From: Deltaproteobacteria bacterium
GTDB taxonomy: Bacteria > Desulfobacterota > GWC2-55-46 > UBA9637
NCBI GenBank assembly: GCA_030690165.1
Contig: JAUYHF010000007.1
Span: 131,420-195,419, forward strand
Reading direction: 5' to 3'
DNA length: 64,000 nt
The position numbers and the translations under genes were made by a program. This document shows positions 4,896 to 41,592 of the stretch, piece after piece. The notes beneath the pieces were generated by a model, which saw only the letters and a program-made list of their open reading frames with translations, was not told the origin of the DNA and did no database searches. How positions within the stretch are numbered: the first letter of the stretch is position 1; each line of letters starts with the position of its first letter.

Positions 4896-6086
4896 ATGAG
4901 CCCCTCAAATCTATCCATAAATGGTTTTAAATCAGCAGGCATCTGCTGCGGAATAAAGAAGGACGGGGGAAAAGACCTTGCCCTGATATATTCTGAATTG
5001 CCTGCCACTCTTGCAGGTGTGTTTACAAAAAATAAAATAAAGGCAGCGCCTGTCCTTATTGATATGCAGAGGATTAAAAAAGGTCTGTGTCAGGCAATAA
5101 TTATAAACAGCGGCAATGCCAATGCCTGCACAGGCAAAAAAGGCATGGAAGATGCAAAAAGCATGGTCGCGGCAGTCGAAGATGCGCTTGGAATAAAAAA
5201 GGGTTTTGCAATGGTCTCGTCAACAGGGGTTATTGGGCAGAGGCTCCCGATTGACAGGCTAAAAAAAGGCATTCCAAAACTTGTTTTCTCCCTTTCATCA
5301 AAAGGCTGGAATGATGCAGTTAATGCGATTATGACAACAGACGCATTTCCAAAGATTGCGTTTGAAAAATGCAGAATAGGCGGCAAAGATATTACTGTTT
5401 TAGGTATCGCCAAGGGCGCGGGTATGATATGCCCGAATATGGCTACTATGCTGGCATTTATCGTAACTGATGCAGAGGTAGAAAGAAAAACATTGCAATC
5501 GGCTTTGAAAAAAGCGGTTGACAAATCATTTAACTGCATAACAGTGGACGGAGATACATCAACTAATGATACTGTGTTGCTCATGGCCAATGGAAAAGCA
5601 GGGAATAAGCACTTTACAGTTCACAGTTCACAGTTCACACCTTTTTATCAGATGCTTGAAAAGGTCTGTCAGAGTCTTGCAAAGATGATTGTAAGGGATG
5701 GTGAAGGTGCAACAAAGCTATTGGAGTTTAATGTTAGCGGCGCAAAGACAGATAAAGACGCAAAAAAGATCGCAGAGACTGTTGCCAATTCGCCTCTTGT
5801 GAAGACGGCATTCTTTGGCGAGGATGCCAATTGGGGAAGAATAATTGCTGCAATAGGCCGTTCAGGCGCATATGTGAAAGAAGAAAAGATAAATATATAT
5901 TTCAATGGTGTGCCTGTTGTGTTAAGAGGTCTTGACGCAGACAGAGAAAGGGATGCGGCAAAGGCTGTTAAGAATGAGAATATATGCGTAAAGATTGAGA
6001 TGGGTTTGAGCAAAGGCAAAAAGACAGTCTGGGCAAGCGATCTGTCGTATGATTATGTAAAGATAAATGCGGCGTATAGAAGCTGA
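4896..6086 (+). CDS. argJ: bifunctional glutamate N-acetyltransferase / amino-acid acetyltransferase ArgJ
   Basis: ATMLAFIVTDA autoprocessing region, TVDGDTSTNDTV and DGEGATKLLE motifs; 396 aa; carries an in-frame CAGTTCA x3 heptamer array at 5617-5639. Confidence 0.9.
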   Translation: MSPSNLSINGFKSAGICCGIKKDGGKDLALIYSELPATLAGVFTKNKIKAAPVLIDMQRIKKGLCQAIIINSGNANACTGKKGMEDAKSMVAAVEDALGIKKGFAMVSSTGVIGQRLPIDRLKKGIPKLVFSLSSKGWNDAVNAIMTTDAFPKIAFEKCRIGGKDITVLGIAKGAGMICPNMATMLAFIVTDAEVERKTLQSALKKAVDKSFNCITVDGDTSTNDTVLLMANGKAGNKHFTVHSSQFTPFYQMLEKVCQSLAKMIVRDGEGATKLLEFNVSGAKTDKDAKKIAETVANSPLVKTAFFGEDANWGRIIAAIGRSGAYVKEEKINIYFNGVPVVLRGLDADRERDAAKAVKNENICVKIEMGLSKGKKTVWASDLSYDYVKINAAYRS

Positions 6087-6090
6087 AAAA

Positions 6091-6170
6091 AGAGTCAGAG
6101 AGTCAGAGTGTCAAAGAGTCAGAGCAATATCAAAAAGTTTGACTCTATGACTCTTTGAATCTTTGACTCT
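6091..6170. repeat. octamer-unit repeat array; left terminal inverted repeat of the HEPN cassette (33-bp IR at 6138-6170)
   Basis: AGAGTCAG-type units 6091-6125 followed by TTTGACTCT-type units 6138-6170; 6138-6170 is the exact reverse complement of 6612-6644. Confidence 0.75.
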
Positions 6171-6185
6171 AAACCGGAGGTTTTT

Positions 6186-6608
6186 ATGGAAGGTTTGGCA
6201 AAAGAGGCAGACAGGTGGTTTAGGCAGGCAGAGAATGATCTGAAGTCAGCAGGATGGAGCCAGCAGGGCGGTTTTTACGCGCATGCGTGTTTCTGGGCTC
6301 AACAAGGTGCTGCAAAGACGCTGCGGGCATTCCTGTTCATGCAAAAGGAGGATGCAAGGGAGACTCGTTCTGTCAGCGAACTCCTTGAAAGGTGCCTTAC
6401 ATACGATGAAGACTTTAAGGCAATTGTTGAATCCGGCAGCAGATTAGATATATATTACAAGACAAGCCGGTATCCTGACAGCCTTCCAGGCGGCATACCT
6501 GCCGAGATTATATCTGCCAGAGATTCCAAAGAGGCGATAAAGATCGCATCGGATATTTTTGCCCTTGTGGAGGAAAAGAGAAAGACGTATATTCCGGAAG
6601 TGATGTGA
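6186..6608 (+). CDS. HEPN domain protein, solo (no nucleotidyltransferase partner)
   Basis: 140 aa helical protein with the HEPN-family RYP signature (YYKTSRYPDSLPGG); own RBS GGAGG at 6176-6180; a position expected to be His is Arg (TRSV). Confidence 0.65.
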   Translation: MEGLAKEADRWFRQAENDLKSAGWSQQGGFYAHACFWAQQGAAKTLRAFLFMQKEDARETRSVSELLERCLTYDEDFKAIVESGSRLDIYYKTSRYPDSLPGGIPAEIISARDSKEAIKIASDIFALVEEKRKTYIPEVM

Positions 6609-6611
6609 AAC

Positions 6612-6699
6612 AGAGTCAAAGATTCAAAGAGTCATAGAGTCAAAATTTTGCTGCTGTTTCAATTACTCTGACTCTGCGACCCTCTGACTCTTTGACTCT
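6612..6699. repeat. octamer-unit repeat array; right terminal inverted repeat of the HEPN cassette (33-bp IR at 6612-6644)
   Basis: 6612-6644 AGAGTCAAAGATTCAAAGAGTCATAGAGTCAAA is the reverse complement of 6138-6170; a second inverted array at 6664-6699. Confidence 0.75.
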
Positions 6700-6715
6700 A
6701 TCAAAAGGAGTCCTA

Positions 6716-7498: not shown

Positions 7499-9157
7499 AT
7501 GGATAAAATAAAAAAAACTTGGGGCATAAGAGGCCAGCTTATTGCAGGACTTACGCTTGTAACAGTGGCTGCCATAGCCCTTCTTGGATTTTTAAGCATC
7601 AAGATGCTGGAATGGAGCGCCTTGTTCAGAAAGGCTAAAGAGGCAGAGGTCATTGCCGCGGTTGTTCAAACATTTGTTCAGGACAGGCAGGGGGCAGAGG
7701 CAAAGGGGTTCAGGGATTTTGTAAAAAGTATTATGGAAAAAGGCATAATAAGAGATATGAGCATAACAGATGAAAAGGGAAGGGTATTTTTTGTTACAGG
7801 TGAGGGTGTGCTGACAGACAAAGACGAGGGGAGGCTGCTCTTTTCTGTTAAAGGATTAGCGGTGAAGACTACAGGCGGGGGGTGGTTTGAGGGGGTTGGA
7901 AAGGAATTGTTTATATCAACGTCCTTGAAGCAGGGGTCGGGGGCAGGGGGCCTGGGGCTTGGGAGATTAGTTTTTTCCATGCCTCTTTCGGATATAAAGG
8001 AAGAGGGCGCAAATTTCAGAAGGTTTATCTTTTTCTACTCCTTGTTTGATTCGCTCATTATAATAACGTTAGGCGTCTATCTATTTTCCAGAGGCATAAT
8101 AAGGCCTATGGCTCTTCTTAAAGAGACCGCTGAAAGTATAGCCGGCGGCAGACTTGAACATAGGGTAAATATAAAGCCCTCCAATGAGATAGGGAGTTTT
8201 GCCTTATCTTTCAATATAATGGCTGATAAACTTGAGGAAAAGATAAAGACATTGGAAAGGCTTAATAAAGAACTTACAGCCATGCAGGGAGAATTGATAA
8301 GGTCTGAAAAACTTGCCACTGTTGGAAGGCTTGCAGCAGGCATTGCCCATGAGATAGGAAATCCTCTGGGCGCAATACTCGGTTATGTTGATATACTCAA
8401 AAAAGGCGCAGCCCCCCCCATCACCGTAGCCGCAGGTTTTAGCCTGCATAATGAGGAGGCGCTGGAAATACTTACACGGCTTGAGAAAGAAATATTAAGG
8501 ATTGACATCATAGTGAGGGGCCTTCTTAATTTTTCAAGACCGTCGATCCCGCTCAGCGGGACGAAAGAGGCTATGCATAATATTGATATAAACCGGACAG
8601 TAGAAGATTCCGTTGAAATACTTTTGCCGCAGTTTTCTGCAAACGGCATATCATTTGACCTAAATCTTGACAAGGATGTACCAAATGTCTTCATTGATGA
8701 TGGCAAGCTTAAACAGGTTCTGCTGAATATATTCATCAATGCAAAGGATGCGATGCCTGAAGGCGGAAAGATATTTATAAAAACAGAGGCCAGACCTGCC
8801 CCTGCAAGCCTGCCCCTGCAAGCAGTAAGCAGGGGTAGTAAGCAGGGGGGACAGCGCTCAGAGGTCAGGAGAAGAAAAAACGATATGGCAGATGCGGACA
8901 TTGCAGGCATACGCATTCAAACTTTGGGCCGCAGCTATGTTATAATTTCTATTACTGATACTGGAAGAGGCATCAGGGAAGAAGACATCGGCAAGATATT
9001 CGACCCGTTTTTTACAACAAAAGAGCAAGGGAAAGGGACAGGTTTGGGGCTTGCAGTATCGCTTGGAATTGTTCAGACATTTGGCGGAGATATAAAGGTG
9101 AAGAGCGAAGCGGGAAAGGGAACTATCTTTGAGATTTTACTGCCTACCATACGATAG
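7499..9157 (+). CDS. sensor histidine kinase with HAMP domain, PilS-like
   Basis: Two N-terminal TM segments, HAMP region, H-box HEIGNPLGAI, N-box LLNIFINAKDAM, G-box GTGLGLAVS; repeat-encoded insertion (8796-8860) in the ATPase domain. Confidence 0.8.
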   Translation: MDKIKKTWGIRGQLIAGLTLVTVAAIALLGFLSIKMLEWSALFRKAKEAEVIAAVVQTFVQDRQGAEAKGFRDFVKSIMEKGIIRDMSITDEKGRVFFVTGEGVLTDKDEGRLLFSVKGLAVKTTGGGWFEGVGKELFISTSLKQGSGAGGLGLGRLVFSMPLSDIKEEGANFRRFIFFYSLFDSLIIITLGVYLFSRGIIRPMALLKETAESIAGGRLEHRVNIKPSNEIGSFALSFNIMADKLEEKIKTLERLNKELTAMQGELIRSEKLATVGRLAAGIAHEIGNPLGAILGYVDILKKGAAPPITVAAGFSLHNEEALEILTRLEKEILRIDIIVRGLLNFSRPSIPLSGTKEAMHNIDINRTVEDSVEILLPQFSANGISFDLNLDKDVPNVFIDDGKLKQVLLNIFINAKDAMPEGGKIFIKTEARPAPASLPLQAVSRGSKQGGQRSEVRRRKNDMADADIAGIRIQTLGRSYVIISITDTGRGIREEDIGKIFDPFFTTKEQGKGTGLGLAVSLGIVQTFGGDIKVKSEAGKGTIFEILLPTIR

Positions 9158-9187
9158 ATTTTGTAGTTGCTCAATTTATTGAGCGTA

Positions 9188-9243
9188 TTGTAACTCAAGG
9201 CTTTAGCCTTGAAAAACTCAAACCTGAAGGTTTGAGTTACAAG
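9188..9243. repeat. 56-bp structured palindromic element, copy 1
   Basis: TTGTAACTCAAGGCTTTAGCCTTGAAAAACTCAAACCTGAAGGTTTGAGTTACAAG; near-identical copy at 22862-22917; nested complementary arms. Confidence 0.6.
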
Positions 9244-9278
9244 CGCCGATAAATCGGCAAACTACGGTTTAAAAAACT

Positions 9279-10622
9279 ATGAAAATTTTAATCATTGACG
9301 ACGAAGATTCCATGCGCCACATGCTTTCCATAATCCTGAAAAAGGAAGGCTATGATGCGGTTTCTGCAGAAAGCGGCCGGCAGGCAATTAAGATGCTGGA
9401 GAAGGAAGATTTTGATTTTATACTCTGCGATATAAGGATGCCGGAGATGAACGGGATGGAATTTCTAAAAAGCCATCAGCTATCAGCTATCAGCCATCAG
9501 CCTGTGGTCATTATGATGTCCGCTTACGGCGCCATTGACACAGCAATCGAGTGCATGAAACTCGGCGCATACGATTATATTTCAAAGCCATTTAAGACAG
9601 ATGAGATTATACTTACATTAAAAAAGGCAGAGGAGAGAGAAAGGCTTAAACGGGAAAACACAAGATTTAAACATATTGCCGAGCAAGAATATGACCTCAA
9701 GAATATTATCACAGAAGATAAACAACTACTTGAAATATTTAAACTTATAAAGAAGGTGGCAGACTATAATACCACTGTCTTAATCACGGGAGAAAGTGGT
9801 ACCGGAAAAGAGCTCATAGCAAGGGCTATCCATTATCATGGTAAAAGAAAGGATAAGCTCTTTGTTGCTGTAAACTGTGGCGCGATTCCAGCAATGCTTC
9901 TTGAGAGCGAGCTCTTCGGTCATGTCAAAGGCGCATTTACTGATGCTGTAAGAAATAAGCCGGGTCTTTTTGAAGAGGCAGATGCAGGGACTATGTTTTT
10001 AGATGAGATAGGCGAGCTTCCAAAGGAGCTTCAGGTAAAACTTTTAAGGGTGATTCAGGAGGGTGAAATAAGAAGGGTTGGCGATTCTAAATCTAAAAAA
10101 ATAGATGTTAGGATTATAGCCGCAACTGCCAGAGACCTGTCAGAAGAAATCAAGAAAGGCAGTTTCAGGGAAGACCTCTTTTACCGCCTGAATGTTGTAA
10201 ACATAAATCTGCCGCCGCTGCGGGAGAGAAAGGGAGATATACCAACCCTTGCCTGGCATTTTTTAAAAATATACTCTGATAAATTCGGCAAGCCGCTAAA
10301 AGGCATAGATAAAGAGGCGATGGATGCCATTTCAAGCTATCAATGGCCCGGGAATGTAAGAGAATTGGAGAATGTGATGGAGAGGGCAGTGATACTTGAA
10401 GACGCTGATGTAATAACACAGAAGAGCCTTCCGTTTTTTAAGACACCAGCCCCCGGTCCCCAGCCCCCGGGTCTTTCTATAAAGAAGGCGGAAGAGGTTG
10501 TTGAAAAAGAGCTTATAAAAAAAGCCCTTGACGCAACAGGCGGCAACAAGACCAAGGCAGCGGAGCTTTTAGAGATTAGCCACAGGGCGCTTTTGTATAA
10601 GATAAAGGGGTATGGGTTGTAA
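9279..10622 (+). CDS. sigma-54-dependent response regulator, NtrC family, PilR-like
   Basis: Receiver domain (DIRMPEMNG), AAA+ sigma-54 interaction domain (GESGTGKE, GAFTDA, ESELFGH), C-terminal Fis-type HTH; in-frame heptamer array 9473-9502 within the receiver domain. Confidence 0.85.
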   Translation: MKILIIDDEDSMRHMLSIILKKEGYDAVSAESGRQAIKMLEKEDFDFILCDIRMPEMNGMEFLKSHQLSAISHQPVVIMMSAYGAIDTAIECMKLGAYDYISKPFKTDEIILTLKKAEERERLKRENTRFKHIAEQEYDLKNIITEDKQLLEIFKLIKKVADYNTTVLITGESGTGKELIARAIHYHGKRKDKLFVAVNCGAIPAMLLESELFGHVKGAFTDAVRNKPGLFEEADAGTMFLDEIGELPKELQVKLLRVIQEGEIRRVGDSKSKKIDVRIIAATARDLSEEIKKGSFREDLFYRLNVVNINLPPLRERKGDIPTLAWHFLKIYSDKFGKPLKGIDKEAMDAISSYQWPGNVRELENVMERAVILEDADVITQKSLPFFKTPAPGPQPPGLSIKKAEEVVEKELIKKALDATGGNKTKAAELLEISHRALLYKIKGYGL

Positions 10623-12661: not shown

Positions 12662-12680
12662 CAGGGATCAGGGGTCGGGG
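12662..12680. repeat. left 19-bp inverted repeat flanking the four-helix-bundle gene
   Basis: CAGGGATCAGGGGTCGGGG is the exact reverse complement of 13141-13159. Confidence 0.7.
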
Positions 12681-19945: not shown

Positions 19946-20003
19946 AAAGACAGGGGTCAGGGGTCGGAAAGACAGTGGTCAGGGGTCGGAAAGACAGTGG
20001 TCA

Positions 20004-20915
20004 GTGATTTTACTGATCCCTGACCCTCGATCCCTGTATCTATGGAGGGTATTTTTGGAAAAGAAGATATGGGAAGAAAGACGAAAGAAGAAGATTGTTC
20101 TGCCAAAGGAACCCGAATCTGAGAAAAAAGATTATAGAAGATGGACGAAGTATATTATTGCCGCTGTCTTTATTATCCTTTTATTTACCCTCTTAAGGGG
20201 CAAGAAAGAAAAGATAGAGATTCCAGGGCCGGAACAGGAATCAGGGGTCAGGGGTCAGGGGTCAGAAAAACAGGGGGCAGGGGTCGTGGCTCAGAGGTCA
20301 GTGAGTAGTCCAGTCGTTGAGCTGCCGCTGCCGCCTCCGCCTAAAAAAAATACCCCCCCGGAAGTCCTGTTAATAAAGTTAAGCCCAAAGATTGTTTACC
20401 AGGGAACCAAGATAAAGGCAGAGGTTTCAGGCAAGGATGCTGATGAGGATGATGAGGTTACCTATTTTTATGAGTGGCGGAGAAACGATACTGTCTTGCC
20501 TGATAATATCCAGCCGGAGATTGATACAAAGGATTTTAAGAAGGGCGAGCTTATAACCTTGTTTGTTACGCCGTTTGACGGCAAAGACAAGGGGAAGACC
20601 AGATTTTCCAGGACAATTGTTATTGTCAACAGGCCGCCTGAGATAATATCATTCCCGCCTGTGTCTGTTTCCAACGGGAAATATCTGTACGAGGTCAAGG
20701 CAAATGACCCGGATGGCGATGCGCTTACTTATTCTCTTGAAAATGCCCCGTCCGGCATGATAATTGATCCTGCAACAGGCATAATCCGATGGGATATCCC
20801 TGTTACGGCAGATTTAAAATCGGTTACTACCTACAATATAAAGATTGTGGTAAGCGATGGCGATGCCACGGCCTTTCAAGGGTTTTCCATGACCCCTGAT
20901 GTGGAAATTAAATAA
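20004..20915 (+). CDS. membrane-anchored protein with two Ig-like/cadherin-like domains
   Basis: TM segment WTKYIIAAVFIILLFTLL, repeat-encoded linker [13 protein letters not shown], then DADEDDEVTYFYEW and DPDGDALTYSLENAPSGMIIDPATGIIRWDIP; start uncertain (GTG 20004 or TTG near 20055). Confidence 0.5.
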   Translation: MILLIPDPRSLYLWRVFLEKKIWEERRKKKIVLPKEPESEKKDYRRWTKYIIAAVFIILLFTLLRGKKEKIEIPGPEQESGVRGQGSEKQGAGVVAQRSVSSPVVELPLPPPPKKNTPPEVLLIKLSPKIVYQGTKIKAEVSGKDADEDDEVTYFYEWRRNDTVLPDNIQPEIDTKDFKKGELITLFVTPFDGKDKGKTRFSRTIVIVNRPPEIISFPPVSVSNGKYLYEVKANDPDGDALTYSLENAPSGMIIDPATGIIRWDIPVTADLKSVTTYNIKIVVSDGDATAFQGFSMTPDVEIK

Positions 20916-21230: not shown

Positions 21231-22295
21231 ATGGAGCTTTCGCTGTTTAAAAAAACCGATGTGGTAGGTCTGGATATTGGCTCCAACTCTGTAAAACTTA
21301 TCCAGCTTGCCCCAACCAAAAAAGGGTGGAGGCTGTTAAATCTCGGCATAATCCAGCTTCCGCCAGAGGCTATTGTTGACGGCTCCATAATAGATTCTAT
21401 GACTGTCATGAGCGCTGTAAAGGACCTTGTCACCCAGCAGGGTATAAAGACTAAAAACTGCGTCTCCGCGCTGACAGGACATTCTGTTATTATCAAAAAG
21501 GTGAACCTCCCTGTGATGACTGAGGCAGAGTTGGGGGAATCTATTCAGTGGGAGGCAGAGCAGTATATACCCTTCCCCATAACAGATGTAAATATAGACT
21601 TTCAGATACTTGGCGCGGATACGGAAGGAAGAGGGCAGATGGAGGTAATGCTTGTTGCTGTAAAGAAGGATGTTATAAACGATTATACCAATGTCATAAA
21701 AGAGGCCGGGCTCCTGCCTGTGATTGTTGATGTGGATTCCTTTGCGCTGGAAAATATGTTTGAGATGAATTACTCCATTGCGCCTAATGAAAATATAGCA
21801 ATAGTGAATATCGGCGCAACCATTACAAGCATAAATGTTCTCCGCAGCGGCGTAACTATATTTACAAGGGCAATACCTCTTGGCGGGAACCAGTTTACGG
21901 AAGAGATACAGAAGGCCATTGGCATAAGTTTTAAAGACGCTGAAGCCATAAAGCTTGGCGGAGAGGTGAGCGGCATAGACGCAGGCGGCGTCCCTCAGGT
22001 GATTGAGCGGGTCTCAGGCAATGTTGCCCTTGAGGTTAAGAGGAGTATAGATTTTTTCCTCGGCGGCGCCCCCGGAATGTTTATCAGCAAGATTTATTTG
22101 AGCGGGGGCTGCACAAAGACAAAGGGCTTGCCGGCTATTATACAGGAGAGGACTGCAATACCTATTGAGATAGTCAACCCCTTTACCGGCGTGGAAGTAA
22201 GTCCCAGGAAATTTGCCCCTGATTATATTAAGGATATTGCGCCGTATTTTGGGGTTGCCGTCGGTCTGGCTATCAGGAAGGTTGGCGACAAATGA
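21231..22295 (+). CDS. pilM: type IV pilus assembly protein PilM
   Basis: Actin-like fold signature VGLDIGSNSVKLIQL; 354 aa; first gene of pilMNOPQ. Confidence 0.9.
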   Translation: MELSLFKKTDVVGLDIGSNSVKLIQLAPTKKGWRLLNLGIIQLPPEAIVDGSIIDSMTVMSAVKDLVTQQGIKTKNCVSALTGHSVIIKKVNLPVMTEAELGESIQWEAEQYIPFPITDVNIDFQILGADTEGRGQMEVMLVAVKKDVINDYTNVIKEAGLLPVIVDVDSFALENMFEMNYSIAPNENIAIVNIGATITSINVLRSGVTIFTRAIPLGGNQFTEEIQKAIGISFKDAEAIKLGGEVSGIDAGGVPQVIERVSGNVALEVKRSIDFFLGGAPGMFISKIYLSGGCTKTKGLPAIIQERTAIPIEIVNPFTGVEVSPRKFAPDYIKDIAPYFGVAVGLAIRKVGDK

Positions 22296-22861
22296 TAAGG
22301 ATAAACCTTTTACCAGTAAGGCTTGCAAAAAAGAAGGAGTCAATAAGGCAGCAGGCATCTGTGGCAGGTCTGAGCATTGTGCTGCTCTTTATAGTTCTTG
22401 GGGTTTTTTACTTTTCCATTACTAAGAGTATAGCTGAACTCAACGTCTCCATATCCGTCGAAGAAAAGAATATCGCCCAGTTTGATAAAGAGATAGGGGA
22501 ATTAAAAAATGTTGAAAGCGAAAAGAAGGCGATTTTGGAAAAGCTGAATATAGTCAAACAGCTTGAGATAGACAAACGACGGCACTTAAAGATATTTTCT
22601 GACATTACAGCCGCAATCCCTGAAAAACTGTGGATTGACTCTCTGAAGGATTCCGGACAAACTGTTACGCTGATTGGTTTTGCCGGGGCTGATGATATAG
22701 TGGCGGATTTTATGCGCCAGCTTGAAAAAACCCTTGTTTCATGGAAGGTTGAGCTTGAGGTTATAAATCAGGTGGAAAAGGAAAAAATAAAACTGGCGGG
22801 TTTTACTATCAGGCTTGAAGCGCCAAAAGGGCCGCCGCCTGCGGCCAAACCCAAGGCATAG
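22292..22861 (+). CDS. pilN: type IV pilus assembly protein PilN
   Basis: N-terminal RINLLP motif followed by a TM helix; overlaps pilM stop. Confidence 0.85.
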   Translation: MIRINLLPVRLAKKKESIRQQASVAGLSIVLLFIVLGVFYFSITKSIAELNVSISVEEKNIAQFDKEIGELKNVESEKKAILEKLNIVKQLEIDKRRHLKIFSDITAAIPEKLWIDSLKDSGQTVTLIGFAGADDIVADFMRQLEKTLVSWKVELEVINQVEKEKIKLAGFTIRLEAPKGPPPAAKPKA

Positions 22862-22917
22862 TTGTAGCTCAAGGCTTTAGCCTTGATAAACCTTCAAACC
22901 TGAAGGTTTGAGCTACA
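22862..22917. repeat. 56-bp structured palindromic element, copy 2 (between pilN and pilO)
   Basis: TTGTAGCTCAAGGCTTTAGCCTTGATAAACCTTCAAACCTGAAGGTTTGAGCTACAA; paralog of 9188-9243. Confidence 0.6.
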
Positions 22918-22940
22918 AATAGACCTTCTAAAGGAGTCTT

Positions 22941-23528
22941 GTGCCAAAGTTTGATGTAGATATAATACTTAAATTGTCCCTTTCTAAAAGGCTTTTGATA
23001 CTTGGGGCTGTCGTGCTTGTTATAACAGGGGTTTTTTATTATTTTTTATACGGCGCAAAATTAAATGAGAAAATCGCCTTAAGCGCAAAATTAGAGGGGT
23101 TTAAGAATACAGTTTCGGAAAAACAGAGGTTAGCCGCCAACCTTCCCAAATTAAAAAAAGAGATTGAGGATCTGAACAACCAGTTCAAACTGGCGCTTGA
23201 GGCCCTGCCCAACGAAAAAGAGATCGCCAATCTTCTCGAAAGCATATCTGATGCGGCTAAGACCGCAAGACTGGATATATTGACCTTTAAGCCGGGAAAG
23301 GAAACCCCAAAGGGTTTTTATGCCGAAGTGACGATAGATATGAAGGTGGAGGGCGGATACAACAGCGTTATTTCCTTCTTTGAAAAGGTTGCAGGGATGC
23401 CAAGGATAGTTAATATAAACGGCTTAAATATAACAAGCGGTAAAGAGGTCAGGGGTGATATTATGATGTCAGCTACTTTTGCAGCGACGACATTTAAGTT
23501 TCTGCCTCAGCCGGAGGCGAAGAAATAA
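22941..23528 (+). CDS. pilO: type IV pilus assembly protein PilO
   Basis: N-terminal TM helix, coiled-coil region, position and size (195 aa). Confidence 0.85.
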   Translation: MPKFDVDIILKLSLSKRLLILGAVVLVITGVFYYFLYGAKLNEKIALSAKLEGFKNTVSEKQRLAANLPKLKKEIEDLNNQFKLALEALPNEKEIANLLESISDAAKTARLDILTFKPGKETPKGFYAEVTIDMKVEGGYNSVISFFEKVAGMPRIVNINGLNITSGKEVRGDIMMSATFAATTFKFLPQPEAKK

Positions 23529-27002: not shown

Positions 27003-27202
27003 TGGATGTATGAAACATCCATGAGCCTTTGGCTCACAAAGAAGGATGAAAATTAACCCCACCCTCACCTGAAACATCCATTGAGGATGTTTCAGTCCTC
27101 TCCCTGAGGGAGAGGAGACTTTTTTGTTCCCTCCCCTTCAAGGGGAGGGTTAGGGTGGGGATGGGGTAAAGAGGGTATTTTCAGGTGAAAATATCGTTTT
27201 AA

Positions 27203-27230
27203 ATGCACCCTCAAAGGGTGCATTTTTTTT
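27203..27230 (+). terminator. rho-independent terminator after pilQ
   Basis: ATGCACCC-TCAAA-GGGTGCAT stem-loop followed by T8; A-tract upstream makes it potentially bidirectional. Confidence 0.7.
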
Positions 27231-27392
27231 GAAGAATATGATATGATACCTTTTTTGTCATTCCCGCATATTTTTAGCGGGAATCCATATTCGTTCCTGC
27301 TAAGGCAGGGAACCGGATAAAATCAAAACATGGATTTCCGATAAAGGCTTCGGAAATGATAGAAAGAAATAGATTTTTTTATAGGAGCTCAT

Positions 27393-28628
27393 ATGCTGAG
27401 ATACTTAACAGCAGGTGAATCACACGGTAAATATTTGACTGCCATTCTGGAAGGCGCGCCGGCAAATCTTAATTTGGCTGCGGATGATATAAATAAAGAA
27501 CTAAGCCGCAGGCAGATTGGCTACGGCCGCGGCGGCAGAATGGCTATTGAAAAAGATGAAGCAGAGATTACATCGGGGGTAAGGTTTGGCAAGACCATAG
27601 GTTCGCCTATTGCTATGGTTATAAAAAATAGAGATTGGGAGAATTGGAAAGAGGTTATGAATACAGGGGTCAGGGGTCAGGGGTCAGGGGTCAAAGAGAT
27701 TACCCATCCAAGGCCGGGCCATGCGGATCTGGCAGGCGCCTTGAAATATGGCCAGTATGATATTCGCAATATTCTTGAACGTTCCAGCGCAAGGGAAACC
27801 GCGGCGCGGGTTGCTGTTGGCGCAGTATGTAAAAGATTTCTGGATGAGATTGGGATAAAAGTGATGAGTTGGGTGGTGGATATAGCAGGGGTCAGGGGTC
27901 AGGGGTCAGGGGTCAGAGAGGAGAATGATATAGAAGCAATTTTTAAACTGGCAGAAGCATCTGATGTGCGTTGTCCTGATAAAAAGATTGCAGAAAAAAT
28001 GAGAAAGGCGATAGATAGGGCAAGAAAAAACGGCGACAGCCTTGGCGGGATATTTGAGGTTGCTGTAACCGGCGTTCCTCCGGGTCTTGGAAGCCATGTC
28101 CAGTGGGATAGAAAATTAGATGGGAATCTGGCAAGGGCGCTTATGAGCATTCAGGCCATAAAAGGGGTTGAGGCGGGTATAGGGTTTGAAGCGGCTGAGA
28201 GATTTGGATCAGAGGTGCATGATGAGATATTTTATAAAATCTCCCCTGACCCCTCTTTGCCAAAGAGGGGAAAATCATCTCCCCCTTTGGAAAAGGGGGA
28301 TAAAGGGGGATTTTACAGAAAAACCAACAATGCCGGCGGCATAGAGGGAGGCATGAGCAACGGCGAACCGATTATACTCCGGGCTGCGATGAAACCGATA
28401 CCAACATTATATAAACCGCTTCGGTCAATAGATATAAAAACAAAAAAGCAGTTTCAGGCAAGTGTTGAAAGGTCGGATATATGCGCTGTGCCTGCTGCTT
28501 CAGTGGTTGGCGAGGCAGTTGTTGCCTTTGAGATAGCCAATGCCTTTATAGATAAATTTGGCGGCGATTCTATCTATGAGGTAAAAAGGAATTATAAGGG
28601 GTATCTGGAGTATTTGAGGAAGTTTTAA
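27393..28628 (+). CDS. aroC: chorismate synthase
   Basis: [30 protein letters not shown] motifs; 411 aa, about 50 aa longer than typical because of three repeat-encoded in-frame insertions. Confidence 0.9.
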
Positions 28629-29129: not shown

Positions 29130-29175
29130 TATGGTAGTCTGCCGATTTATCGGCGCTTTTAAAAGACGCCCATAA

Positions 29176-30282
29176 ATGGGCATACTACATATGGAACGCA
29201 TTACTGTAAATCTTGGTGAGCGAAGCTATCCAATCTATATCGGGAGAAATAATCTCGATATGGTGGGAGAGTTGATGAAGCAGAAAGGTCTTAATGGCAA
29301 AGCAGCCTGTATTACAAATCCTACGGTAGGGAAACTTTATGGCAACAGGGCGCTTGATAGTCTTGGCAAGGCAGGTTTTGAGGTTTTCAGAATAGATATC
29401 CCTGACGGCGAAGAGTACAAAAGCCTTGAATGGCTCTCGCATATATATGATAAACTTATTGAATATAAGATGGAGAGGCAATCCCCTATTGTTGCCCTTG
29501 GCGGCGGCGTTGTAGGGGATATTGCAGGTTTTGCGGCAGCTACATACTTAAGGGGTGTGCCGTATATTCAGGTTCCAACGACACTCCTGTCCCAGGTTGA
29601 CAGTTCTGTCGGCGGCAAGACTGGGGTGAATCATCCAAAGGGCAAAAACCTTATAGGCGCATTCTATCAGCCAAAGATGGCGCTTTTAGATGTGGATGTT
29701 CTTAAGACGCTTGGAGAGAGGGATATAAAGGCGGGCTTGGCTGAAGTTATTAAATATGGTATTATCAAGGACGCCGGTTTCTTCTCGTTTTTAGAGGAAA
29801 ATTATGCGGATGTTCTCAAACTGGGAGATAGCCTGCTGCATGTTGTAAAGGTGTCATGCGGGATAAAGGCGCGGGTGGTTGAAGAGGATGAGAGGGAGGC
29901 GGGCATAAGGTCAATACTTAACTTTGGACATACATTCGGCCATGCAGTAGAGACCGTGACCGACTATAAGGAGTTAAGGCACGGCGAGGCAGTTGCCATC
30001 GGCATGGCTGCTGCCGCAAGGCTCTCTTTTAAACTCGGCCTGTGCAGTAAAGATGTTTGCGAAAGGATAGAAAGATTGGTATCAAAGATTGGTCTTCCCA
30101 TAAAGCTATCAGCTGTCAGCCGTCAGCTATCAGCTAAAGAATTATTACAGGCTATGGAGATGGATAAAAAGGCGGCTGGAGGAAATATAAAGTTTGTGAT
30201 GGTGGAAGATATTGGCAAGGTAATATTTAAACAGATGGGAAGAGCGGATTTTTCCATTGACTTATCAGAGATTTTAAACTAA
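29176..30282 (+). CDS. aroB: 3-dehydroquinate synthase
   Basis: GGGVVGDIAGFAAATYLRGVPYIQVPTTLLSQVDSSVGGKTGVN; alternative start ATG 29191; in-frame heptamer array 30105-30135. Confidence 0.88.
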   Translation: MGILHMERITVNLGERSYPIYIGRNNLDMVGELMKQKGLNGKAACITNPTVGKLYGNRALDSLGKAGFEVFRIDIPDGEEYKSLEWLSHIYDKLIEYKMERQSPIVALGGGVVGDIAGFAAATYLRGVPYIQVPTTLLSQVDSSVGGKTGVNHPKGKNLIGAFYQPKMALLDVDVLKTLGERDIKAGLAEVIKYGIIKDAGFFSFLEENYADVLKLGDSLLHVVKVSCGIKARVVEEDEREAGIRSILNFGHTFGHAVETVTDYKELRHGEAVAIGMAAAARLSFKLGLCSKDVCERIERLVSKIGLPIKLSAVSRQLSAKELLQAMEMDKKAAGGNIKFVMVEDIGKVIFKQMGRADFSIDLSEILN

Positions 30283-33896: not shown

Positions 33897-33939
33897 CTCC
33901 CCCTAACCCCCTCTTTGATAAAGAGGGGGAATAATAACT

Positions 33940-34722
33940 ATGAATGATTGGAGATTATTGATAGACCTGCCGCAAAACGGCCTGGAAAACATGGCAACAG
34001 ATGAGGCCATCCTGGAATCCTGCAATCAGAGACTTTCCCAACCCACTTTAAGGCTGTATGAATGGAGCGAGCCAACCCTTTCCATAGGTTGTTTTCAGAA
34101 GGCTGATAATGCTATTAAATACTGTTTGGAAGCAGGAATTCCTTATGTCAGGCGGATTACCGGCGGAAGGGCTGTGCTGCATAGCGATGAGATTACATAT
34201 TCAATAATTTGCAGTGCGGGAGAGCCGTTATTTGAAGAGGGGGTATCAGGGGCATACAGAATAATAAGCAGATGCCTGCTTACTGCATTAAGAGAAGTTG
34301 AAATTAATGCCGATATGCATACTTCCAGGGCCATAGAATATGGTTTTGAAAAAACTTCCTGCTTTCATTCTCCTTCCAGATATGAGATTATAATAGACAA
34401 TAAAAAACTTGTTGGAAGCGCACAGAGGCGGTTTAAAAGGGCGTTTATACAGCATGGTTCCATCCTTTTCGGAGTAGACAGGGATCTGATTGCGCAGTTG
34501 TTTGGAGAGGAGTCTCTGTCGATGATGGCATGGATTAAACTTTACAGCGATATAAAAAAAGATGAGTTTAAGGCTATTTTAATAGATAAGATTAGAAAGG
34601 GGTTGAACATAAACCTGACTGCCGGTAATATAAATAATAATGAAAATTACCTGAGAGATAAACTGCTAAGTGTCAGAGAGTCAGAGGGTCAAAGTGTCAG
34701 AGTAAAAACTTTGACTCTTTGA
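33940..34722 (+). CDS. lipoate-protein ligase / octanoyltransferase family (BPL/LPL catalytic domain) protein
   Basis: PTLRLYEWSEPTLSIG ... VRRITGGRAVLHSDEITYS pattern; C-terminal 18 aa are encoded by an octamer hairpin array 34670-34725. Confidence 0.6.
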   Translation: MNDWRLLIDLPQNGLENMATDEAILESCNQRLSQPTLRLYEWSEPTLSIGCFQKADNAIKYCLEAGIPYVRRITGGRAVLHSDEITYSIICSAGEPLFEEGVSGAYRIISRCLLTALREVEINADMHTSRAIEYGFEKTSCFHSPSRYEIIIDNKKLVGSAQRRFKRAFIQHGSILFGVDRDLIAQLFGEESLSMMAWIKLYSDIKKDEFKAILIDKIRKGLNINLTAGNINNNENYLRDKLLSVRESEGQSVRVKTLTL

Positions 34723-34746
34723 TACTATGACCCTATTTTTATTCCT

Positions 34747-36714
34747 ATGGATGAGAAAAGCAAAATAATAGATAAGGCTCAAAAGCTGCTGCAGAAAGGA
34801 TACCTTGACAAGGCCATTGCCGAATACAAAAAGGTGGTCGAAAAGTATCCAAAAGACACGACTATTCGTTTGCGGGTAGGAGACCTTTATGTAAAGGTTG
34901 GCAAGAAGGATGAGGCCATAAAGGAATATGGCGAGGTGGCCAAAATACATACAAAGGGAGGATTCAACCTAAAGGCCATTGCTGTTTACAAGCAGATCCT
35001 TAAATTAGATGAAGGACAGTTGGAGATATATTTTAAGCTGTCAGACCTTTACACAAACCAAAGGCTGATAGCAGATGCTGTAGCGTCATTAAGTGTTCTG
35101 GTCAGTTTTTATGAAAAGAAGGGAAAGGCTGATGAGGCAATCGATGTTTTAAAAAAGATGATAACAGTCGACCCTCAGAATGTCGGGGTAAGGCTCAAGC
35201 TTGCTGACTATTATAAGACGAAAGGGTTTACAAATGATGCGCTTGCGGAATATGTCGTGGCATTTAATAGTCTTCTTAAGGACGGCAAAATAGATAAGGC
35301 TGAAAAGCTTTACGAAGGGTTATATGCTGATAACAGGAGAAATATAAATATAATAGAAGGGCTTGTGGAGGTATACAGGATTAAGGGTGACAAAACCCAT
35401 CTTATAAGATATTGGAAAGAACTGGCAAACCTGTATAAGGAAAAAGGCGAGGCTGAAAAGAGAAAAGAGATTTATAAGAAGATACTTGAGATTGCCCCGG
35501 AAGATAATGATGCCCTGAATGCCCTCGGCATAAAGCCGGCAGTAGAGGAGCCTGCTCAAAAAGCTGCACCTTCAAAAGTTCCTGCAGAAGATAAGACCGC
35601 AAAAGAACCGCTCATAGCATGGCCTGAATTTACCAAAGACCTCTTTGAAGAGCCTCGGGAAAAACCTGAACAGATAGCAGCGCCTGCCCCCTTGAAAGAG
35701 GAACCTTTAATATCATGGGATGAAATGATAGAGGTAAGTGAGGAGGCGGGGAGAGGGGCTGCGCCTCGCGAGCCGGAGACCAGCGTAAAGCAGCCGGTTG
35801 AAGAGGCGCCCATTATAGAGATGCCGGAGATTCAGGCGGCTGAAATAACAGAAGAAGAGCCTCTCATAGAGATGCCGGAGGTTCATGCAGCAGAAACAAA
35901 AGAAGATGCCCAGCGCATATCACCTATACCTTCTGAAGAAAAGGCCCGTGCAGAAGAGATTGCAGGAGAAATAGCTCCGGAATACATTGAACCTGCGGAA
36001 GAACTGCCCCAAGTGGAAGAGGCAGAAGTTTTAGAGGCAGTTGAAGAAGTTGCGCCAAAGCATGGTTTAGAGGGATTGGGACTGGAAGGGTTTTTGCCTG
36101 AAGGGGCAACTATAATAGGAGAGATGGAGTCCCAGCCTGATGAAGAGGGATATGTTGACCTTTCTTCAGAATTAGGGCTGGAAGAGGCCCTGGATTTTTT
36201 GACTGAATCCTGGGCTCCTGACGAAAAGGGTAAGGAGACCTTTACGGAATTTAAACACGGCGTGGAAAAACAGTTGAGCAGAGAGGATACTGAAACCCAT
36301 TATAACCTTGGCATTGCATATATGGAGATGGAACTCTTTGATGATGCCATGAGGGAATTCAAGATTGCTTTGAAAAACCCTGTATTTGAATTTGATTGTT
36401 ATGCCAGGCTTGGTTTGAGCCTTAGGACAAAAGGAGATTACGAGGAGGCTATAGGCAATTTTTTAAAAGGGCTTAAAGTTAGCGGAAGGACAGATGAAGA
36501 GCGGAAAGGGATCATGTATGAACTTGGTCTGACCTACGAGGCCGCCTGCCTCACGCATGAGGCGTTGGAGGTCTTTACCTCCGTATTCGAGATGGATGAA
36601 TGGTTTAGAGAGGTTTCTTATAAGATTCAGGAATTAAGAAAAAAGCTGGAAGAAGAAATTGAGGCCGGGGCTATTCCATCAACAGACGATATGATAGAGG
36701 TTGAACTCTTGTGA
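34747..36714 (+). CDS. TPR-repeat protein with central acidic repeat region
   Basis: TPR-like helices at both ends; central Glu/Pro-rich tandem repeats (EEPLIEMPE x2). Confidence 0.55.
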   Translation: MDEKSKIIDKAQKLLQKGYLDKAIAEYKKVVEKYPKDTTIRLRVGDLYVKVGKKDEAIKEYGEVAKIHTKGGFNLKAIAVYKQILKLDEGQLEIYFKLSDLYTNQRLIADAVASLSVLVSFYEKKGKADEAIDVLKKMITVDPQNVGVRLKLADYYKTKGFTNDALAEYVVAFNSLLKDGKIDKAEKLYEGLYADNRRNINIIEGLVEVYRIKGDKTHLIRYWKELANLYKEKGEAEKRKEIYKKILEIAPEDNDALNALGIKPAVEEPAQKAAPSKVPAEDKTAKEPLIAWPEFTKDLFEEPREKPEQIAAPAPLKEEPLISWDEMIEVSEEAGRGAAPREPETSVKQPVEEAPIIEMPEIQAAEITEEEPLIEMPEVHAAETKEDAQRISPIPSEEKARAEEIAGEIAPEYIEPAEELPQVEEAEVLEAVEEVAPKHGLEGLGLEGFLPEGATIIGEMESQPDEEGYVDLSSELGLEEALDFLTESWAPDEKGKETFTEFKHGVEKQLSREDTETHYNLGIAYMEMELFDDAMREFKIALKNPVFEFDCYARLGLSLRTKGDYEEAIGNFLKGLKVSGRTDEERKGIMYELGLTYEAACLTHEALEVFTSVFEMDEWFREVSYKIQELRKKLEEEIEAGAIPSTDDMIEVELL

Positions 36715-36739
36715 CTCATAAGATTACACTATTTTCGCA

Positions 36740-36770
36740 AAGGCCGGTTTAGCCGGCCTTTTCTTTTTTT
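36740..36770 (+). terminator. rho-independent terminator
   Basis: AAGGCCGG-TTTAG-CCGGCCTT stem-loop followed by TTCTTTTTTT. Confidence 0.65.
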
Positions 36771-36781
36771 GGGTTTTTTGA

Positions 36782-39627: not shown

Positions 39628-41592
39628 ATGCCCTTAATCATCGGCACAGCAGGACATATTGACCACGGCAAGACCAGCCTTATAAAGGCGCTCACCGGCA
39701 TGGATACCGACCGCCTGAAAGAGGAAAAGGAGCGCGGCATATCCATTGACTTGGGTTTTGCTTACCTTGATTTGCCTGATGGTACAAAGGCAGGGATTGT
39801 GGATGTGCCTGGCCATGAGAGATTTATAAGGAATATGTTGGCAGGGGCTACAGGCATTGACCTCGTTTTATTTGTTGTTGCCGCTGATGACGGCATAATG
39901 CCGCAGACAAGAGAGCATCTTGATATAATGCATCTCCTTGAAATCAAGAGCGGCATATTTGTAATTACAAAGATTGATTTGGTTGACGTCGGACAAATAA
40001 ATAAAGTATCAGAAGATATAAAAACGTTGACTAAAGATACCTGCCTTAAAGACTCGCCCATCATTTCAGTTTCCTCTGCAACAGGCTCCGGCATAGATAA
40101 TCTTAAAAATCTCATAATAAATGAAGCTGAAAAAATTTTACAAAGGCCCGAAGGCGGTTTTTTCAGGCTACCTATTGACCGCACATTTTCAATAAAGGGT
40201 TTTGGCGCTGTTGTTACAGGAACGGTTTTATCAGGTAATATAAATAAAAATGCCGATGCTGTTATCATTTCGAAACGGGCAACTGCTCCTAAAAAAGTGA
40301 AAATAAGAGGCATGCAGAGCCACTTCAAAGAGGTAAGCACAATAGCCGCAGGTCAGAGGGCTGCTATAAACTTAAGCGGTATATCTCATACAGACATTGA
40401 AAGAGGCAATATGCTCGTCTCTCCTGATATGGATATGATTACTGATATAGCTGATGTATCCTTTGAATTTCTGAATTCAACAAAAAAACCGATAAAAAAT
40501 TATTCAATCTTCAAGCTTTACCACATGACAGATGAAACTATGGCAAATGTATCATTTGCCGGTGTGAATGAGGTCCGCCCCGGCGCTAAGGTGTTTGGCC
40601 GGGTAAGACTAAAAGAGCCGATGGCTATGATGAGGAACGACAGATTCATATTAAGAGACCATGCCATAAACGCTACAATAGGCGGCGGCCGTGTGCTTCT
40701 CCCTTACCCCGAAAATGTAGCCGTAACCTTTATGTTGCGTGATAAACGCAGGCTAAAGCCTGCGACTACCCAAGATAGACAAAGGCAATATCAAGTTTTA
40801 GATAGTCAGGATTTAAGCAAAATTTTAATATCCATTTTATCAGACAAAGACACTTTTGGCATAGACAGTCATGCAATACGGCTTATGCTTAATATTTCTG
40901 AAAAGGGGCTTGAGGATCTTATAGCCTCTAACAAGGGGGAAGAGGAGATTGTCCTGATTGGCGGCAAATTAGTTTTGAAACAAAGGATTAATGAGATGGA
41001 ACAGGAGGTCATTCATATTATAAATAATTATCATAAGCAAATGCCCGGCGATATAGGGATTGAGGAAGATAATATGGCAAAGGCATTTAAAGGCGCTGTT
41101 CCTAAAGCAATTCTGCAGGTTGTATTGGGCGGTCTTATAAATTGTGGTAAGATTGCCAGAACCGGCAAGGTATTCAGCCTGCCGTCATACAGGCGCGTAA
41201 CTCAGGGATTGGATAAGGAGATAGAGGATGCAATTTTATCGGCATTTTCCAGCAGGCATTTTGATCCGGTTAAAATGGACGAGGCTCTGCAATCCCATTC
41301 CTGTAAAAAAGAAGATATAAAAAAGGTATTTCAACTTCTCATCAAAAGAGGTATTGTTGTCAAGATTACAGAAGACAGCTATATCTCTCAGGCTAAGTTG
41401 GATGAGGCTAAAGATAAGCTGACAAGATGGGTTGATGATAAAGGAAAAATAAAGGCCGCAGAGTTCCGTGATGTTCTCGGCTGCGGAAGAAAATTTGCCA
41501 TAGAGCTTCTGGAATATTTTGATAAAGAAAAGATTACGCTGAGAAGCGGGGATTATAGGGTGTTAAGAAAAACATTAAGCGCTAAGCAGTGA
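39628..41592 (+). CDS. selB: selenocysteine-specific translation elongation factor SelB
   Basis: N-terminus [21 protein letters not shown] ... [15 protein letters not shown] ... TKID colinear with SelB; long C-terminal extension; 654 aa. Confidence 0.9.

Follow-up and report, generated by a model that had tools for sequence, protein, structure and literature searches.

Does a short structured sequence that recurs within pilus operons serve those operons as an RNA, or is it mobile DNA that has entered them? The question is raised by a 64-kb stretch of contig JAUYHF010000007.1 (64,000 nucleotides of assembly GCA_030690165.1, Deltaproteobacteria bacterium; hereafter the window), in which a first-pass annotation had reported near-identical copies of a 56-bp element at 9188-9243 and 22862-22917. 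It had proposed either an RNA-level role or a sequence resembling repetitive extragenic palindromic (REP) elements or miniature inverted-repeat transposable elements (MITEs). Both copies are present, with true repeat cores at 9190-9240 (copy 1) and 22864-22916 (copy 2), and the second of these proposals was borne out in the form of GTAG-tagged, head-to-head REP heterodimers associated with genes for REP-associated tyrosine transposases (RAYTs). The 56-bp element is very probably a REP heterodimer similar to bacterial interspersed mosaic elements (BIMEs) and to REP doublets forming hairpins (REPINs), representing non-autonomous mobile DNA of a REP-RAYT system. The observed steps leading to this interpretation are a repeat family, a maintained hairpin, an extragenic bias, dimer rules, linkage to RAYT genes and empty orthologous sites.

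Anatomy and position of the two copies

Each copy consists of a head-to-head pair of inverted REP palindromes, with two 23-nt units per copy that follow the formula GTA(A/G)C-TCA-NNNN-TTTA-NNNN-TGA, in which a 5' GTAG-like tag precedes a 7-bp hairpin (stem TCA + NNNN / NNNN + TGA, 4-nt loop TTTA or TTCA). This family, GTARCTCA..., is referred to as F1. In both copies the left unit reads GTA(A/G)CTCAAGGCTTTAGCCTTGA and the right unit, on the opposite strand, GTA(A/G)CTCAAACCTTCAGGTTTGA. The units are the same in both copies save for the fourth base of the tag (GTAAC...GTTAC in copy 1, GTAGC...GCTAC in copy 2), a change that is present on both arms with complementarity kept, and they are separated by the spacers AAAAC (5 nt) in copy 1 and TAAACCT (7 nt) in copy 2. 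Half-motifs of the element were found solely at these two sites in the window (expected counts 0.01 and 0.08), and none of 100 shuffled sequences reached the observed count.

Copy 1 is located between a 552-aa histidine kinase open reading frame (ORF; 7499-9157) and a sigma-54 response regulator (9279-10622), and copy 2 between pilN (22292-22861) and pilO (22941-23528), with co-directional flanking genes in both cases. Pfam labels on an identical public contig confirmed the gene order pilMNOPQ. Copy 1 furthermore sits within a larger 103-nt nested quartet (9163-9265), in which the F1 doublet is enclosed by a doublet of another family, F3. One of the outer units holds the short palindrome GCCGATAAATCGGC, which had correctly been noticed after copy 1 (9245-9258) and as an inverted recurrence between aroK and aroB; the latter lies at 29141-29154 and not, as reported, at 29142-29160. 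The first-pass annotation had missed the quartet itself, a second GTAG-tagged family, the full doublet at 29134-29188 and a doublet at 40717-40769. The units of copies 1 and 2 are as follows (L plus a number designates a public locus).

9163..9185, + strand: outer REP unit of copy 1, F3, GTAGTTGCTCAATTTATTGAGCG; GTAG tag and 6-bp hairpin with TTTA loop; F3 also in L041, L083, L111 and L023
9190..9212, + strand: inner REP unit of copy 1, F1, GTAACTCAAGGCTTTAGCCTTGA; identical to the commonest unit of the public loci (95 copies)
9218..9240, - strand: inner inverted REP unit of copy 1, F1, GTAACTCAAACCTTCAGGTTTGA; heterodimer partner with core AACC
9243..9265, - strand: outer inverted REP unit of copy 1, F3, GTAGTTTGCCGATTTATCGGCGC; holds the short palindrome
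22864..22886, + strand: REP unit of copy 2, F1, GTAGCTCAAGGCTTTAGCCTTGA; 2 nt past the pilN stop codon (TAG, 22859-22861)
22894..22916, - strand: inverted REP unit of copy 2, F1, GTAGCTCAAACCTTCAGGTTTGA

Predicted folds and maintenance of the hairpin

The nested complementary arms that had been noted in both copies are real. The RNA folds of copies 1 and 2 have predicted energies of -25.3 and -26.6 kcal/mol (z = -6.3 and -6.2), and the corresponding DNA folds have z-scores of -5.4 and -7.4. In the REP stem-loop test, fold z-scores ranged from -4 to -9, and the units (23 nt, 7-bp stem, 4-nt loop) fall within the 20-50-nt size of a REP palindrome. The DNA is predicted to form two hairpins and not one long hairpin, with an outer stem closing the pair in copy 2; a single long hairpin is possible in the predicted RNA fold, in which G-U pairs are allowed. 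A scan of the window against Rfam returned no matches at gathering thresholds, the best permissive match being TD-2 with 20.8 bits versus a gathering score of 48.7.

Covariation among aligned copies, which had been proposed as a check, was evaluated on units selected by their constant parts only (GTA[AGT]CTCA, 12 free bases, TGA), leaving out units with the query core (n = 113). All four core pairs are complementary in 89/113 of these units and three of the four in 18/113, with a chance expectation of 0.4% for four of four. Likewise, all four core pairs are complementary in 206 of the 230 units selected without a pairing criterion. The 113 units comprise at least eight core types, including ACCC, AACC, GCCC, GGGC, GGAC and TACC. 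An alignment of 38 distinct units contains two-sided changes at six of the seven stem pairs and, having been preselected for pairing, is informative solely for the diversity of pair types. The hairpin is maintained while its 4-bp stem core varies by compensatory changes.

Distribution, hosts and dimer rules of the F1 family

Further copies were retrieved with the exact 19-mer CTCAAGGCTTTAGCCTTGA (one genome per species), which lies inside the unit and leaves the tag outside the query. At least 120 public stretches match. Approximately 12 of the matches listed lack a tag and resemble chance terminator hairpins; the rest have GTAAC or GTAGC directly 5' of the hairpin, and most of the tagged matches listed carry an inverted partner unit. 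The loci collected contain 230 F1 units. Hosts among the matches listed include Desulfobacterota/Deltaproteobacteria/Syntrophaceae, with many metagenome-assembled genomes (MAGs) and at least 14 loci in one of them (JBAQMW01), and anammox Planctomycetota, with at least eight loci in one Anammoxibacter MAG and contigs of up to 204 kb. Nitrospinota, Methylomirabilota and Desantisbacteria are also among the hosts of the matches listed, as are several other groups represented by single contigs, which could be binning errors. The 5' flank of perfect hairpins in these loci is GTAAC in 138 cases and GTAGC in 27, followed by the next 5-mer with nine. The F1 unit is strand-asymmetric, because TTTA loops (198) far outnumber TAAA loops (22) when read from the tag side.

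Two unusual contexts were observed among these loci. In Anammoxibacter JAIQZO01 (L005, L027, L042, L063, L089, L107 and L116), a tail-to-tail F1 doublet is embedded in a ~200-nt multicopy element, the conserved 3' part of which (GATGATGTATGGGGAGAGATATCCGTTTGCGATAGGAGGCGCTTCT...GGAGATTCTAGTCCGCC) looks structured and is devoid of an ORF; no larger autonomous element was found in the Anammoxibacter loci, where conservation ends at ~200 nt. In Desantisbacteria MNUO01 (L114, 2850-3000), alternating F1 units with cores GGAC and AGGC form a head-to-tail tandem with a period of 28 nt per unit, an arrangement that is rare in the F1 family.

F1 units are predominantly extragenic, as expected of REPs: only 31/226 units (14%) lie within ORFs of at least 150 aa (stop-to-stop), compared with 78% of random 23-mers from the same loci. 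They occur as singletons (55), as head-to-head (HH) dimers with the tags outside, which is the form of the window copies (n = 37, spacers mostly 1-7 nt), as tail-to-tail (TT) dimers with the tags inside (n = 44, spacers 3-18 nt), and in a few nested or tandem clusters. All 81 scored dimers are heterodimers, in which units with an AGGC or GGGC core always have a partner of the ACCC, AACC or GCCC type; like never pairs with like. Such a preference in other REPs has been explained as avoidance of long perfect palindromes, which are unstable in DNA (PMC3733652); the same avoidance plausibly explains the strict rule observed here, and the two-hairpin predicted DNA fold is in line with it.

The fourth base of the tag covaries between HH partners (26 AA, 5 GG, 3 AG; p = 4e-4) and shows no covariation in TT dimers, in agreement with the A-to-G change on both arms between the window copies. 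Either selection for the outer stem or joint replication of both halves of the doublet would account for this covariation. Co-replication of the kind expected of REPINs is favoured by the presence of the whole doublet at two window sites, the recurrence of the 103-nt quartet described below and the HH tag covariation, whereas singletons and TT dimers being equally common speaks against it.

Linkage to RAYT genes

All ORFs of the collected loci and of the window were compared with RayT of E. coli K-12 (NC_000913) using phmmer. Five ORFs in pattern-selected loci matched (L017, L024, L066, L058 and L023), and seven loci in total contain Y1/RAYT-matching ORFs. All five ORFs scanned pass the cutoff of the NCBIfam model NF047646, 'REP-associated tyrosine transposase' (85.6-97.9 bits, cutoff 80), remain under the NCBIfam IS200 cutoff (22.8-30.9 bits versus 55) and all match Pfam Y1_Tnp. 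The HUH motif is conserved (H-L/F/C-H aligned with H59-M-H61 of E. coli), as is the tyrosine (Y of YILxNPV aligned with Y115; residue numbering is our own count), at an overall identity to E. coli RayT of 21-28%. The RAYT gene of L017 is preceded by five F1 units and followed by three, with its last codons belonging to a unit; that of L024 has F1 units on both sides, and that of L066 (labelled Brocadiaceae) on the sole side retained by the contig. In L058, which derives from a near relative of the window genome, the RAYT is a different one (37% identical), and the flanking units belong to another family, F2.

This linkage was also tested independently of the DNA pattern. With the L017 protein as query, 1512 homologs were found at E <= 1e-20, and two of these were picked by protein similarity alone. 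Both (L215/L216 and L217/L218; 64-70% identical to L017) are bordered by F1 doublets or arrays on both sides. F1 units flank four distinct RAYT genes on both sides and one more on its only readable side, and the RAYTs that accompany the F1 constant parts are 54-74% identical to one another and carry differing phylum labels. These loci are REPtrons, in which a RAYT gene is flanked by its cognate REPs; their proteins are RAYTs rather than IS200 transposases.

The RAYT genes of L215-L218 share their neighbours, a gene for a P-type heavy-metal ATPase upstream and one for an HtrA-like protease downstream, which suggests vertical inheritance in that lineage despite the cross-phylum spread of the REPs. 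In an all-against-all clustering of ORFs from 121 loci, four clusters were larger than that of the RAYTs, which was recognised only via phmmer with E. coli RayT.

Empty orthologous sites and recent insertion

In contigs encoding PilN proteins 97%, 92%, 85% and 74% identical to that of the window, the gap between pilN and pilO is just 3-9 nt and the element is absent. The empty site reads ...GGCATAA followed by AGGAGTCTTGTG; the window reads ...GGCATA, followed by the insertion G TTGTAGC...CTACAA ATAGACCTTCTA and then AAGGAGTCTTGTG. The insertion changed the pilN stop codon from TAA to TAG and left the ribosome-binding site and GTG start codon of pilO intact. At the other junction, the kinase stop codon overlaps the regulator start codon (ATATGA; 4-nt overlap) in relatives with regulators 93%, 86% and 81% identical. 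The GAGG formerly upstream of the regulator is now GAGA, and no Shine-Dalgarno sequence precedes its ATG at 9279; the regulator no longer has its former Shine-Dalgarno sequence, and its coupling to the kinase is probably gone as well. The two insertions are delimited as follows.

22861..22930, + strand: insertion at pilN-pilO, 70 nt compared with empty sites in L219, L124-L127 and L129/L130
9147..9277, + strand: insertion at the kinase-regulator junction, ~131 nt absent from relatives; contains the quartet 9163-9265

In a 78% relative (L134), a different set of palindromes fills the kinase-regulator gap. The 103-nt quartet recurs whole at non-syntenic sites in three related MAGs, at 97% (L111), 91% (L083) and 93% (L047) identity. 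Conversely, in L102, which is syntenic with window positions 33939-38205, a stop codon and a terminator are separated by an F1 doublet that the window site lacks. Comparison of the filled with the empty sites revealed no target-site duplication at either junction. Because relatives have empty sites at both junctions, the sequence comparison indicates recent insertion of both window copies. These empty junctions, together with the occurrence of F1 units at over 100 unrelated loci from many phyla, leave the notion of a conserved RNA element tied to pilus operons unsupported.

Proposed mechanism and alternative explanations

We propose that F1, F2 and F3 are three related families that have colonised the window genome. 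A RAYT gene located elsewhere in the genome, flanked by F1-type units as a REPtron, would encode an HUH/Y1 nuclease (TnpA-REP) that probably recognises the folded single-stranded hairpin together with its tag, as inferred from work on E. coli and Stenotrophomonas (PMC3479197, PMC8266576). The enzyme would then cut and rejoin DNA, most likely single-stranded DNA at replication forks. Judging from which positions are constant and which vary, recognition appears to depend on the tag, the TCA/TGA stem base and the TTTA loop, with the 4-bp core left free. One F1 doublet would have entered between the pilN stop codon and the pilO ribosome-binding site, and the other, within the F3 doublet of the quartet, at the former 4-nt overlap of the kinase and sigma-54 regulator genes. 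Once transcribed, the hairpin of ~-25 kcal/mol might act as a barrier to 3' exonucleases or as a translational uncoupler, altering the ratio of upstream to downstream gene expression.

Several points weigh against this interpretation. The phmmer search with E. coli RayT identified no RAYT gene in the 64-kb window, and the RAYT-like ORF of L023 has no adjoining unit, the nearest being ~860 nt away. Most F1 units have GTAA and not the canonical GTAG. A transposition intermediate, a cleavage site and a target motif could not be defined, and 12-16 nt of extra flanking sequence in the 70-nt and 131-nt insertions are unexplained. Moreover, RAYT-mediated mobility of REPs has not been demonstrated in vivo for any family (PMC8266576). 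The presence of a cognate RAYT in the window organism is proposed by analogy with the flanked RAYT genes seen in relatives and other MAGs.

The alternative that survives best supposes that the REP insertions have been co-opted, with the hairpin shielding the upstream mRNA from 3' exonucleases or with broken coupling lowering the translation of pilO or of the regulator. E. coli REPs have been credited with such roles (reviewed in PMC8266576, PMC3733652), the RNA fold is stable (-25 kcal/mol), copy 2 begins 2 nt past the pilN stop codon, and the insertion of copy 1 broke the ATGA overlap and moved the GAGG that had served as Shine-Dalgarno sequence away from the regulator. Possible effects include a block to exonucleases following pilN or the kinase gene and a loss of the regulator's translational coupling. 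However, the insertions are very recent and not common to relatives, and thus bear no sign of selection, and copy 2 kept the ribosome-binding site and start codon of pilO, suggesting a near-neutral insertion. On balance, we consider co-option rather unlikely.

A dedicated cis-regulatory RNA of type IV pilus operons, acting as a processing site, attenuator or stabiliser and conserved for pilus gene stoichiometry, could account for the location of both copies between co-directional genes of pilus-related operons, for the stable RNA folds and for the compensatory A/G difference on both arms. It is highly improbable in view of the empty sites in relatives (PilN 97/92/85/74% and regulator 93/86/81% identity), the spread of F1 units over more than 100 unrelated loci in many phyla and the lack of Rfam matches at gathering thresholds; the covariation, for its part, is explained equally well by a DNA hairpin recognised by a RAYT.

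Derivation from a classical DDE insertion sequence as a MITE, or from leftover IS200/IS605 ends, appears similarly far-fetched. The small, dispersed, inverted-repeat architecture would fit such an origin, and the inverted unit ends in TTAC, which we take to resemble the target of IS608. In contrast, neither filled site has a visible target-site duplication, the all-against-all ORF clustering across loci revealed no recurrent DDE transposase adjoining the units, and the linked ORFs fail the IS200 cutoff while passing that for RAYTs. Furthermore, the RAYT genes retrieved by protein similarity share a single conserved gene neighbourhood (P-type ATPase/HtrA-like protease); RAYT genes are typically single-copy and stay in place, unlike insertion sequences (PMC8266576).

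The least credible explanation, intrinsic terminators that share sequence by chance, is suggested by GC-containing hairpins just past stop codons but conflicts with the lack of a T-run after either copy on the + strand (CTACGGTTTAAAAAAC and CTACAAATAGACC), the tight coupling of the flanking genes in relatives and the situation in L102, where a canonical terminator hairpin with its own T-run follows the doublet as a separate structure.

Integron attC sites and CRISPR repeats were also considered and rejected, as their core motifs do not fit, the arrays are without spacers and the elements lie inside conserved operons.

Other repeats in the window

The window contains five doublets of three families within 64 kb. 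In addition to F1, these are F2 (GTAGCCGCA-NNN-TTTA-NNN-TGCG), with the doublet at 40717-40769, and F3 (GTAGT..GCCSATTTATSGGC), which supplies the outer units of copy 1 and a complete doublet at the aroK-aroB site (29134-29188). The F1 tag is GTAA in copy 1 and GTAG in copy 2, and GTAG is present in every F2 and F3 unit. A generic scan of the window for GTAG followed by any hairpin yielded weak enrichment (17 matches versus 9.2 +/- 2.9 in shuffles); the repeat signal resides in specific families rather than in a generic GTAG-hairpin pattern. The additional units are listed below.

29134..29156, + strand: REP unit, F3, GTAGTCTGCCGATTTATCGGCGC; starts 4 nt after the aroK stop codon (29129)
29166..29188, - strand: inverted REP unit, F3, GTAGTATGCCCATTTATGGGCGT; ends 2 nt upstream of the aroB ATG (29191)
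40717..40739, + strand: REP unit, F2, degenerate (one T-G pair), GTAGCCGTAACCTTTATGTTGCG; in frame within the SelB ORF
40747..40769, - strand: inverted REP unit, F2, GTAGTCGCAGGCTTTAGCCTGCG; in frame within the SelB ORF; F2 also flanks the RAYT gene in L058

The F2 doublet in the gene for the selenocysteine elongation factor SelB (ORF 39628-41592) corresponds to codons 364-381, immediately past domain III, at the point up to which solved SelB structures can be aligned; the protein has ~12 extra residues there relative to distant SelBs. The doublet is a candidate insertion, as the metagenome scan returned no close SelB ortholog and all SelBs retrieved were distant (29-38% identical along their full length). 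In a metagenomic selB relative (L187, 789-980), the G domain and domain II are separated by a ~190-nt gap with a change of frame, which could be an insertion or an assembly error. Within the histidine kinase ORF, positions 8426-8449 (GTAGCCGCAGGTTTTAGCCTGCAT) resemble a degenerate single F2 unit and may be either a chance match or an old intragenic REP.

Tandem heptamers (CAGGGGT)n, which resemble the STRR heptamer repeats of cyanobacteria, were observed at 19951-20010, 20235-20305, 27662-27695 and 27886-27917, and also at 12662, 14309 and 14909. They occupy intergenic DNA and, in frame, ORFs; two arrays inside the chorismate synthase ORF (27393-28628) encode GVRGQGSGV-like inserts. Arrays of an 8-nt repeat (AGAGTCAx) followed by its inverted counterpart (TGACTCTx) form long imperfect palindromes at 6081-6179, 6603-6700 and 34668-34735, the first two of which bracket the ORF 6186-6608. 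More small palindromic families occur at window positions 27040-27300, in L134 (1090-1200), L002 and L029, examples being CCCCACCCTCACC...GGTTAGGGTGGGG, CCCTCCCC/GGGGAGGG and GTCATTCCCGC...GCGGGAATCC. These genomes are unusually repeat-rich.

Relation to known REP systems and significance

REPs with a 5'-GTAG tag, including HH, TT and heterodimeric forms, occasional intragenic copies and flanking of RAYT genes, have been described from more than 80 species of eight phyla, including delta-proteobacteria and Planctomycetes (PMC3733652). F1 shares with this superfamily, which includes SMAG of Stenotrophomonas maltophilia (Di Nocera et al. 2013, PMC3733652), a 20-40-bp palindrome with an unpaired 5' GTAG-type tag, 6-9-bp stems and short loops, sub-families differing by complementary stem changes, and singletons alongside HH and TT dimers with heterodimers preferred. 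The extragenic location, mostly downstream of ORFs with occasional intragenic copies, and the flanked RAYT genes are likewise common to both. Unlike these REPs, F1 has a tag that is mostly GTAA(C), with a fourth-position variation not among the degeneracies in PMC3733652, its heterodimers are apparently obligatory (81/81), and its hosts are uncultured Desulfobacterota, anammox Planctomycetota, Nitrospinota and others. Judged by text description and not by consensus sequences, F1 appears to match none of the 24 families in PMC3733652. F1 adds a new family, with a variant tag that is mostly GTAA, to the known GTAG-tagged REPs.

The arrangement of RAYT genes and REPs is that described for E. coli, Stenotrophomonas and Marinomonas (PMC8266576). 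As in the Group 3 REPtrons of S. maltophilia and Marinomonas (Corneloup et al. 2021, PMC8266576), short perfect palindromes are preceded by a conserved tetranucleotide, tnpA-REP is directly flanked by a REP and an inverted REP, and the protein contains the HUH and Tyr motifs. The RAYTs here, at 21-28% identity to E. coli RayT, are likened to that group by the layout of REPs and gene, known from sequence alone, and differ from it in that the same REP constant parts accompany RAYTs that are 54-74% identical and bear differing phylum labels.

Similar to the REPINs of Pseudomonas fluorescens (Bertels & Rainey 2011, PMC3116915) and E. coli BIMEs, an inverted REP pair with a short spacer forms the unit, HH tags covary, and doublet and nested quartet recur whole at unrelated sites; the two alternating REP types per dimer recall the Y and Z REPs of BIMEs. 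In contrast to REPINs and BIMEs, the stem cores of the arms differ, the DNA is predicted to fold into two hairpins plus an outer stem, and TT dimers are as common as HH dimers. REPIN-RAYT systems have been described as vertically inherited, whereas F1 carries many phylum labels.

Mildly unusual features are the wide range of phylum labels, a heterodimer rule without exception, the composite repeat formed by nested families and the very recent insertions into overlapping or abutting genes. Among the features by which F1 stands out are its free 4-bp core, the apparently obligatory pairing of purine-rich with pyrimidine-rich cores and those very recent insertions. A broader proposition, that F1 represents an unusually cosmopolitan REP-RAYT system in which anaerobic bacteria of sediment and groundwater from at least eight phylum-level groups share GTAAC, TCA/TGA and TTTA, is put forward tentatively, as we hold it to be somewhat less probable than its negation. 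If true, it would imply repeated horizontal transfer of whole REPtrons or extreme conservation of the recognition determinants of RAYTs, either of which would contrast with published descriptions of REPIN-RAYT systems as inherited vertically and confined to particular lineages.

For annotation, REP doublet, rather than candidate pilus riboregulator, is the appropriate label for structured intra-operon sequences of this kind. The pairs of filled and empty sites at ~97% protein identity, the heterodimer rule and the arrays flanking RAYT genes in several phyla provide usable material for asking how REPs move and what RAYTs recognise, and the insertion that split the overlapping kinase-regulator pair constitutes a natural experiment on translational coupling.

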